Below are positions 3,641-6,249 of a DNA stretch of 9,461 nucleotides, in pieces. The notes beneath the pieces are model-generated. The model had not been told where the DNA came from. It was given only the letters and a program-made list of their open reading frames with translations, and did no database searches. Positions within the stretch are counted from its first letter, which is position 1. Each line of letters starts with the position of its first letter. A program made the translations under genes and the position numbers. Origin of the DNA: Escherichia coli (GTDB lineage: Bacteria; Pseudomonadota; Gammaproteobacteria; Enterobacterales; Enterobacteriaceae). Location of the stretch: the NCBI RefSeq assembly GCF_003334355.1, contig NZ_QOWP01000059.1; one strand, written 5' to 3'.

Positions 3641-4090
3641 ATGTTTAACAACATCTTAGTTGTCTGTGTCGGCAATATTTGCCGTTCCCCGACGGCGGAA
3701 CGCTTACTGCAACGTTATCACCCGGAGCTGAAAGTGGAGTCCGCTGGACTCGGCGCGCTGGTCGGTAAGGGCGCTGATCCTACCGCTATCAGCGTCGCCG
3801 CAGAACATCAACTGTCACTGGAAGGTCACTGTGCCCGTCAAATCAGCCGCAGCCTGTGTCGCAACTACGACCTGATTTTGACCATGGAAAAGCGCCATAT
3901 CGAACGCTTATGCGAGATGGCACCTGAGATGCGCGGCAAAGTGATGCTGTTTGGTCACTGGGATAACGAATGTGAAATTCCCGATCCGTATCGTAAAAGC
4001 CGTGATGCGTTTGACGCGGTGTACGCATTACTTGAACGGTCTGCCCGCCAATGGGCTCAGGCACTGAACGCAGAGCAGGGAAAACAATGA
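3641..4090 (+). CDS. wzb: Low-molecular-weight protein-tyrosine phosphatase Wzb, 149 aa, intact
   Basis: ORF 3641..4090. Active-site P-loop CX5R(S) motif in VCVGNICRSPTAERLL near the N-terminus and a DPY motif (EIPDPYRK). The stop TGA overlaps the wzc ATG (ATGA at 4087-4090). Confidence 0.92.
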   Translation: MFNNILVVCVGNICRSPTAERLLQRYHPELKVESAGLGALVGKGADPTAISVAAEHQLSLEGHCARQISRSLCRNYDLILTMEKRHIERLCEMAPEMRGKVMLFGHWDNECEIPDPYRKSRDAFDAVYALLERSARQWAQALNAEQGKQ

Positions 4091-6249
4091 CAGAAAAAGT
4101 TAAACAGTCTGCTGCGCCGGTAACCGGCAATGATGAAATCGATATTGGTCGTCTGGTTGCAACGGTGGTGGAGGCCCGCTGGTGGGTATTAGGCATTACC
4201 ACGGCTTTTGCATTGTGTGCCGCGGTCTACACACTGTTCGCCACACCCATCTACAGTGCGGACGCGCTGGTGCAAATTGAGCAAAATACCGGAAATTAAC
4301 TGGTGCAGGATATTGGCTCGGCGTTGTCGAACAAACCTCCGGCCTCGGAAGCGGAAATTCAGCTCATCCAGTCGCGTCTGGTATTAGGGAAAACGGTAGA
4401 CGATCTTAACCTCGATATCGCCGTTACCAAAGATACATTCCCTATTTTTGGCGCGGGCTGGGACCGGCTGATGGGCCGCCAGAACGAAACGGTTAATGTG
4501 ACCACCTTCACGTTGCCAAAGGCAATGAATGAACAGACCTTCACGCTCAATGTGCTGAATGACAAAAGCTATCAACTGGTGAGTGACGGGGGTTTTAGCG
4601 CCCGGGGGCAAGTCGGCAAGGTGTTGGAACATGATGGCGTGACGATGCTCGTTGAGGCGATTCATGCCAGCCCGGAGAGCCAATTTACCGTCAGCAAATT
4701 CTCCATGCTGGGCATGATAAACACCCTGCAAAATAACCTGATGGTGACGGAAACGGGCAAAGACACCGGCGTATTGAGCCTGACCTTTACCGGCGAAGAC
4801 CGCGAGCAAATCCGCCAGATCCTCGACAGTATTACCCGCAACTATCTGCAACAAAACGTGGAACGTAAATCCGAAGAGGCCGCCAAAAGTCTGGCGTTTC
4901 TGGCAAAGCAACTGCCTGAGGTACGTAACCGGCTTGACGTTGCTGAAAACAAGCTGAACGCCTTTCGTCAGGATAAAGACTCCGTGGATTTGCCGCTGGA
5001 AGCCAAAGCGGTGCTGGATTCGATGGTGAATATCGATGCGCAGCTGAATGAACTGACCTTCAAAGAAGCGGAGCTTTCCAAGCTGTTCACCAAAGCGCAT
5101 CCGGCGTACCGCACGCTGCTGGAAAAACGCCAGGCGCTGGAAGATGAGAAAAGTAAGCTGAACGGGCGCGTAACGGCGATGCTGAAAACGCAGCAGGAAA
5201 TTGTTCGTCTGACGCGTGATGTGGAGTCCGGTCAGCAGGTCTATATGCAGTTGCTGAACAAGCAACAGGAACTGAAGATTACCGAGGCCAGTACGGTTGG
5301 CGATGTGCGCATTGTCGATCCTGCGATTGCCCAGCCTGGCGTGCTGAAGCCGAAAACGGCGCTGATTATTCTCGGCAGTATCATTCTTTGTTTGATGCTT
5401 TCTGTGGTGGGCGTACTGCTGCGTTCTCTGTTTAATCGCGGTATTGAAAGCCCCCTGGCGCTGGAAGAGCATGGTATCAGCGTGTATGCCAGTATTCCGC
5501 TATCTGAATGGCAAAAAGCGCGTGATAACGTTCAGACCATTAAAGGTGTGAAACGCTACAAGCAAAGCCAGCTGTTGGCCGTGGGGAATCCAACGGATCT
5601 CGCCATAGAAGCGGTCCGCAGCCTGCGTACCAGTCTGCACTTTGCCATGATGCAGGCGCGTAACAACGTATTGATGCTGACCGGCGTCAGCCCATCGATT
5701 GGTAAAACGTTTGTCTGCGCCAACCTGGCGGCAGTCATCAGCCAGACCAACAAACGCGTGCTGTTGATCGATTGCGACATGTGCAAAGGCTATACCCACG
5801 AACTGCTGGGGACCAATAACGTCAACGGCCTGTCTGAGATCCTGATTGGTAAGGGGGATATCTCATCCAGCGCCAAACCGACATCGATTCCGCATTTTGA
5901 TCTGATCCCTCGCGGTCAAGTCCCTCCCAATCCTTCCGAGCTGTTGATGAGCGAGCGTTTCGGCGAACTGATTGCCTGGGCCAGCTCGCACTATGACCTG
6001 GTGCTGATTGACACCCCACCAATTCTGGCGGTGACCGACGCGGCGATTGTTGGCCGTCATGTCGGCACCACGCTGATGGTGGCGCGTTATGCGGTCAACA
6101 CGCTGAAAGAGGTGGAAACCAGCCTGAGTCGCTTCGAGCAAAATGGCATCCAGGTGAAAGGGGTGATCCTCAACTCGATATTCCGCCGTGCCAGCGGGTA
6201 TCAGGATTACGGCTACTACGAATACGAATATACGTCGGATGCGAAATAA
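4087..6249 (+). pseudogene. wzc: BY-kinase / polysaccharide co-polymerase Wzc, 720 codons, broken by an in-frame TAA at 4297-4299 (codon 71)
   Basis: ATG at 4087 gives MTEKVKQSAAPVTGNDEIDIGRLVATVVEARWWVLGITTAFALCAAVYTLFATPIYSADALVQIEQNTGN, then TAA, then in-frame continuation LVQDIGSALSNKPP... (track ORF 4303..6249; 4303-4087=216). Downstream part is a complete Wzc body: coiled-coil periplasmic region, second TM (LIILGSIILCLMLSVVGVLL), Walker A GVSPSIGKT, Walker B VLLIDCDM, and C-terminal Tyr cluster YQDYGYYEYEYTSDAK. Confidence 0.85.

Follow-up and report, generated by a model that had tools for sequence, protein, structure and literature searches.

When a stop codon cuts a kinase gene just behind its first membrane helix, and a possible start codon lies three nucleotides further on, does the cell keep a shortened kinase or only a broken gene? 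The question is raised by wzc in a 9,461-nucleotide stretch of Escherichia coli DNA (contig NZ_QOWP01000059.1; hereafter the window, meaning the whole stretch analysed), which is the beginning of the colanic acid (wca/cps) cluster. The wzc gene encodes a BY-kinase and polysaccharide co-polymerase and follows wzb, the gene of a low-molecular-weight phosphotyrosine phosphatase. An earlier note, made from the sequence alone, had named the gene wzc and located an ochre stop (TAA, 4297-4299) at codon 71, an in-frame GTG at 4303 and a GGAA at 4291-4294; it had proposed that reinitiation at the GTG could give a Wzc without the first transmembrane helix (TM1) that might still act as an autokinase and as a substrate of Wzb. 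Every one of these coordinates is correct. The answer favored here, with a probability of about 0.86, is nevertheless that the TAA is a simple nonsense mutation with loss of function, one step in the neutral decay of a cluster that was already dead, and that wzc is an ordinary pseudogene.

The wzc stop in a decaying cluster

The wzc pseudogene (4087-6249, plus strand) comprises 720 codons, of which codon 71 is the only internal stop, and its native ATG stands at 4087-4089. Kyte-Doolittle hydropathy places the two membrane helices of Wzc at about residues 32-55 and 418-451, so that the TAA, 19 residues past TM1, falls directly after this helix, in agreement with the earlier note. Two open reading frames (ORFs) result. 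The upstream one (4087-4299, plus strand) encodes a fragment of 70 residues, formed by the cytoplasmic N-terminus, TM1 and a periplasmic stretch of 15-18 residues up to the TAA, and aligns with positions 1-70 of the NCBIfam equivalog profile NF008568 (Wzc). The downstream in-frame ORF (4303-6249, plus strand; stop at 6247-6249) starts from the GTG, which is Val73 at codon 73, and encodes 648 residues holding the periplasmic domain, the second transmembrane helix (TM2) and the kinase domain. It aligns with profile positions 73-720, and its 1306 bits exceed the cut-off of 1068, which confirms the identity of the gene.

The stop is a genuine inherited single-base mutation. Codon 71 is TCA (Ser) in the intact allele of strain E2863 and TCG (Ser) in K-12, and Ser71 is ancestral in all the intact alleles compared (E2863, O111:H21 15A, EC31 and K-12). 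With TCA in the intact allele, the stop corresponds to a single C to A change at 4298 (S71*). A 41-nt probe centered on the TAA, for which a match requires the central base to be shared, was searched against 5426 complete E. coli genomes, the set used for all genome counts below. It matches exactly nine of them: ARL09/232, EA13, APEC E956, E5, PSS-12, PEC414, GPEC1352, GPEC1354 and GPEC1356, with human, pig and chicken hosts and an origin in New Zealand, Australia and Ecuador at least. The TCA version of the probe matches 60 genomes. The ortholog comparison that the earlier note had suggested as a check for a sequencing error therefore returns a real stop. The wzc pseudogene is already known through RefSeq annotation, as PGAP labels it a pseudogene ("internal stop") in ARL09/232, APEC E956 and PSS-12, the three genomes whose annotation was consulted. 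The window itself differs from all close genomes examined by two private single-nucleotide polymorphisms (2475 and 5074) and by its own junction with the insertion sequence IS1, which makes its source strain a tenth carrier, outside the 5426 complete genomes. With regard to readthrough or recoding, considered from the sequence only, TAA is neither the selenocysteine nor the pyrrolysine codon.

The mutation is not alone in the cluster. The wza gene has two stops, E143* at 2922-2924 (GAA to TAA) and another at 3549-3551. A probe for E143* finds 63 complete genomes, among them E2863 and EC31, both with an intact wzc, while the window and all three annotated TAA relatives have the wza stop: the wzc stop is nested within the wza-stop lineage. 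In wcaC, the loss of one base near 7784, within a run rich in A (GGTAAA-AAAGCG), shifts the frame, and this frameshift is found in the six relatives examined (O111:H21 15A, E2863, EC31, APEC E956, ARL09/232 and PSS-12). In O111:H21 15A, wcaC is frameshifted though wza and wzc are intact, so that the wcaC lesion is the oldest. Read from these alleles, the order of events is the wcaC frameshift, then wza E143* (63 genomes), the wzc stop (nine), the wzc substitution R566C (eight), and lastly I330L together with the IS1 junction at 9282, both found in the window only. From this nesting it follows that the wzc stop is a late event in a cluster already unable to make or export colanic acid. It is precisely this operon context, with two stops in wza, a frameshift in wcaC and wcaD cut by IS1, that was overlooked when a restarted kinase was proposed. 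What is expected of a pseudogene in a decaying operon is found here: the lesion is disabling, it is inherited, and other genes of the same pathway are broken too.

The substitutions that wzc has accumulated since its lineage separated from that of EC31, the closest relative whose wzc is open, point in the same direction. Besides S71*, they are T207M (C to T at 4706), R566C (C to T at 5782) and I330L (A to C at 5074), all given on the plus strand, with no synonymous change. T207M is present in all three TAA genomes compared (window, ARL09/232 and APEC E956) and absent from EC31, and I330L is private to the window. A probe for R566C matches eight genomes, all inside the nine with the TAA, and R566C is therefore younger than the stop. 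Between the allele family of the window and K-12, the ratio of non-synonymous to synonymous substitution rates of wzc (dN/dS) is 0.063, with a dS of 1.15. At this ratio 17% of new substitutions are expected to be non-synonymous, and three missense changes out of three have a P of ~0.005; under neutrality 76% are expected, and the same outcome has a P of 0.44. On these small numbers, the downstream ORF shows no mark of purifying selection: all three substitutions are missense, and one lies in a catalytic motif. As far as these substitutions go, they suggest that the ORF is no longer maintained, and relaxed constraint with neutral decay fits them.

On this reading, S71* became fixed in a small E. 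coli clade after the colanic acid operon had been inactivated. Translation from the native ATG, coupled to that of wzb by an ATGA overlap, would stop after 70 residues and leave a short TM1 peptide without known function. Ribosomes ending at 4299 may now and then restart at GTG 4303, which is possible at any start codon near a stop, but this would be incidental. Without the signal-anchor helix, the product could not place its domain of ~350 residues in the periplasm and would probably be mislocalized. It would have no Wza partner, no WcaC, no WcaD and no polymer to export, and in the window it would also bear R566C in the catalytic motif Walker A', with a presumed effect on function.

Several observations weigh against this account. 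The relaxed-selection test is not conclusive, as it relies on three missense and no synonymous changes. The 648-codon ORF remains open and exceeds the Wzc equivalog cut-off, although an intact ORF is expected when the mutation is recent. The operon is not uniformly degraded, wzb, wcaA and wcaB being intact. Finally, the gap of 3 nt between stop and GTG favors reinitiation (PMC5972666), so that a certain amount of truncated protein may arise.

The candidate restart site and its predicted product

The arrangement around the stop does have the geometry of a restart site. The GTG (4303-4305) is in frame, 3 nt past the TAA, and the GGAA (4291-4294, plus strand), proposed as a weak Shine-Dalgarno (SD) sequence, lies 8 nt upstream of it, inside the codons of Gly69-Asn70. 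Restart near a stop is established in bacteria (Adhin and van Duin 1990, as summarized in PMC5972666), and post-termination ribosomes can restart at close start codons preceded by an SD-like sequence (PMC5972666). Low-level reinitiation at GTG 4303 is thus mechanistically possible.

Nothing, however, marks GTG 4303 as a special restart site. The position of the GGAA is as the earlier note gave it, but the signal is not distinctive: its duplex with the anti-SD reaches -3.5 kcal/mol, within a background of 20-nt windows whose median is -2.4 kcal/mol and of which 40% attain -3.0 or better. An in-frame ATG, GTG or TTG within three codons downstream is available for ~20% of the possible nonsense sites of wzc; for ~4-5% of all possible sites it comes with an SD-like match no weaker than the GGAA. 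Moreover, the codons involved, GGA-AAT (Gly69-Asn70) and GTG (Val73), are ancestral and read the same in the intact alleles. All nine TAA genomes have the same 41-mer around the restart site, with 4298 as its single difference from the intact allele, and no site-improving or compensatory mutation is found near the GTG in any of the nine. Alternative restart codons were scanned in frame (ATG, GTG or TTG) up to codon 260. The nearest are TTG at codon 80 (-4.1 kcal/mol, but with poor spacing) and ATG at codon 129; since none of these starts restores TM1, the conclusion is unchanged.

The 648-residue ORF retains most of a kinase. Pfam analysis identifies WZC_N, GNVR, AAA_31 and CbiA (P-loop domain). 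The Walker A motif (A/GxxxxxGK[S/T]) is present as GVSPSIGKT and aligns with the P-loop of the solved Wzc (a construct with K540M), and Walker B (VLIDTPP, at 639) and the tyrosine cluster (YQDYGYYEYEY, at 705) are present too, as the earlier note had stated. The exception is Walker A', whose phi-phi-phi-phi-DxDxR pattern counts among the BY-kinase signature motifs (PMC8457666). Residues 559-566 are LLIDCDMC in the window, as compared to LLIDCDMR in K-12 and APEC E956, and the Arg is present in the solved K-12 and K30 Wzc structures. R566C removes the defining Arg of Walker A', and an effect on function would be expected.

A second difficulty is topological. In Wzc, two membrane helices flank a periplasmic domain that is followed by a cytoplasmic kinase (PMC9245664), all in one polypeptide; in the window the TAA splits TM1 from the rest. 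Taken together, any restart product shows no sign of biological meaning. Restart as such is an established bacterial phenomenon, in so far as PMC5972666 recounts it, and this part of the earlier proposal stands; there is no sign that such a product matters, given an operon broken earlier, R566C and changes that are all missense. The 648-residue ORF should not be called as a gene.

Rival readings and known systems

Three other explanations of the stop have been considered. An error of sequencing or assembly, with TCA as the true codon and an intact wzc, would require only the one base that separates the window from the intact allele; the chance of it is practically nil, as the identical base occurs in nine independently sequenced complete genomes, the stop is nested phylogenetically with other private changes (T207M, R566C), and the site lies outside any homopolymer or repeat. 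The second is adaptive inactivation, according to which the nonsense mutation was positively selected because an orphan Wzc, without Wza and without polymer, is costly or does harm, e.g., as a burden on the membrane or by stray phosphorylation of tyrosines. The spread of the carrier clade over several hosts and continents, the position of the mutation early in wzc, with near-complete loss, and the later erosion by IS1 deletions would agree with it. It is nonetheless improbable: a single TAA allele arose once among the 63 wza-dead genomes, the other 54 of which keep TCA at codon 71, no parallel independent knock-out of wzc is seen in the relatives examined, and drift with hitch-hiking in a clonal lineage explains the pattern fully.

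A functional restart, in which ribosomes terminating at the TAA reinitiate at GTG 4303 and the 648-residue Wzc is kept because it still serves as tyrosine autokinase and as substrate of Wzb, possibly with other targets such as Ugd, is more doubtful still. In its favor are the spacing of stop, GTG and GGAA, the documented reinitiation at nearby starts after an SD-like sequence (PMC5972666), the intact Walker A, Walker B and tyrosine cluster, the intact wzb, and the fact that the isolated catalytic domain of Wzc (447-725) can be expressed and purified by itself (PMC9245664). Against it, the SD-like match is at background and the entire arrangement is ancestral coding sequence, without compensatory changes around it; R566C came after the stop in eight of the nine genomes, and every substitution since the split changes the protein. 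From the two-pass topology (PMC9245664), a periplasmic domain without TM1 would have no export signal, and TM2 would fail to insert or would invert, moving the kinase out of the cytoplasm. The upstream wza stops may also lower expression by polarity. A narrower version, in which the TM1-less protein made from GTG 4303 persists in the lineages that keep R566 (e.g., APEC E956) as a cytoplasmic or peripheral tyrosine kinase acting on non-capsule substrates, has a slimmer chance again. If true, a dead export gene would have been converted into a free signaling kinase, and a restart product that is real and active would represent an uncommon case in nature of a BY-kinase released from its membrane machinery; the evidence points the other way, to the neutral loss of wzc in a dead cluster.

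The comparison with known systems leads to the same assessment. The colanic acid Wzc of K-12 (b2060; PDB IDs 3LA6 for the catalytic domain, 9xgv and 9r62 for the full-length protein) has the same 720 codons in the same gene order (wza-wzb-wzc-wcaA), two predicted membrane helices, and the same Walker A, Walker B and tyrosine-cluster motifs. The wzc of the window differs from it in being broken at codon 71 and in having R566C in Walker A'. The classical translational restarts after nonsense codons are those of lacI and T4 rIIB. With nonsense restarts and termination-reinitiation coupling (the scanning model of Adhin and van Duin; PMC5972666), the window shares a GTG a few nucleotides past a premature stop and a weak SD-like sequence upstream. 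Whereas those classical restarts were shown by experiment, the one considered here is read from the sequence, with an SD at background, and the later evolution of the gene points to no function.

The split BY-kinases of Firmicutes (CapA/CapB, Wzd/Wze; PDB IDs 3BFV, 4JLV) offer another parallel, as BY-kinase function would be divided over two polypeptides, and the CapB kinase domains are detectable homologues. In Firmicutes, however, the split lies after TM2 and separates a two-helix adaptor from a soluble kinase, whereas the break in the window lies after TM1 and leaves a second piece that is topologically unviable. A natural split BY-kinase of the CapA/CapB type does not fit this position, with the break at codon 71 and TM2 at ~418-451. 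The closest match is the accumulation of surface-polysaccharide pseudogenes in clonal E. coli, including erosion by insertion sequences beside the O-antigen locus. Several independent lesions (nonsense, frameshift, IS1 insertion and deletion) are nested phylogenetically in one operon, and the window is a typical example from which nothing essential differs. A literature search for colanic acid pseudogenes in O111 and for strain E956 returned nothing specific. The locus is to be read as a colanic-acid-negative genotype, with wza, wzc, wcaC and wcaD all disabled. Its nested lesions provide a clean, small example of the decay of a surface-polysaccharide operon after loss of its first gene, and its significance beyond annotation is small.

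Layout and probable mosaic origin of the cluster

From its proximal to its distal end, the window contains an intact yegH on the minus strand (254-1837), followed on the plus strand by the wza pseudogene (2496-3635), with its two internal stops, annotated "internal stop" in relatives, and by wzb (3641-4090), which is intact and whose TGA overlaps the ATG of wzc as ATGA. Downstream of wzc lie wcaA (6322-7164) and wcaB (7167-7652), both intact, then, on the plus strand, the frameshifted wcaC pseudogene (7652-8868) and a wcaD remnant (8843-9281) limited to its first 146 codons. This remnant is interrupted by IS1, of which the window holds the left end only (9282-9461, plus strand), its inverted repeat GGTGATGCTGCCAACTTACTG starting at 9282. 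An ops element of the JUMPStart type, GGCGGTAG, is located at 2306-2313, ~180 nt upstream of wza, and we take it to be an RfaH recruitment site. If RfaH acts there, it could soften the Rho-dependent polarity caused by the wza stops, so that transcription of wzb and wzc continues.

The distal part of the cluster has been eroded more than once. The IS1 junction in wcaD lies at 9282 in the window; in window coordinates, that of ARL09/232 corresponds to 9218 and that of PSS-12 to 9395. There is none in APEC E956, in which the wzc stop is present while the segment from wcaD to cpsB is full-length and free of IS1. The right-hand IS1 junctions differ as well, ending in a partial cpsB in ARL09/232 and in a partial wcaM in PSS-12. 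These differing junctions suggest repeated adjacent deletions mediated by IS1, eroding a dead cluster. The colanic acid gene gmd has suffered as well: APEC E956 carries a frameshift in it (17401-18523 of its locus), and O111:H21 15A retains a truncated copy, behind which remnants of IS3, IS30 and IS2 extend as far as galF, the distal cluster of this strain having been lost separately via insertion sequences. The gmd lesions of these two strains are further independent decay events in one allele family.

The wzc-wca segment is itself divergent. Its wzc shares 80% nucleotide and 87% amino-acid identity with that of K-12, and identity to K-12 falls sharply at ~3900-4130, around the wzb/wzc junction, from 96-99% upstream (yegH, wza, wzb) to 73-86% downstream. 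Such a profile marks a sharp recombination breakpoint, beyond which lies a divergent allele, probably imported from a distant lineage and set beside a K-12-like wza. The segment is found in 69 complete genomes (60 with TCA and nine with TAA), many of them of serogroup O111. Full-length matches number 4816 in the genome set, namely 4747 at 80-90% identity plus these 69; other records of high identity probably align just with the wzb end of the query, which is K-12-like. Recognition between Wza and Wzc has been reported to be specific (Reid and Whitfield 2005, cited in PMC9245664), so that the wza/wzc mosaic might in itself have impaired function. Within wzc, eight differences in 47 bp (5183-5229), including P366L, set the window, E2863 and EC31 apart from O111:H21 15A, which is identical to K-12 at the eight sites. 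On this pattern, the stretch looks like a short recombination patch.

Some features lie upstream of the cluster. The yegH-wza intergenic region harbors, on the minus strand (2038-2187), a 49-residue hypothetical protein annotated by PGAP in relatives (WP_162829205.1). The first bases of the window, from 1 to ~150-230, are not collinear with K-12, E2863 or 15A, and close relatives have, between asmA and yegH, an insertion with an IS110-family transposase, a helix-turn-helix gene and a truncated RelE/ParE toxin gene.

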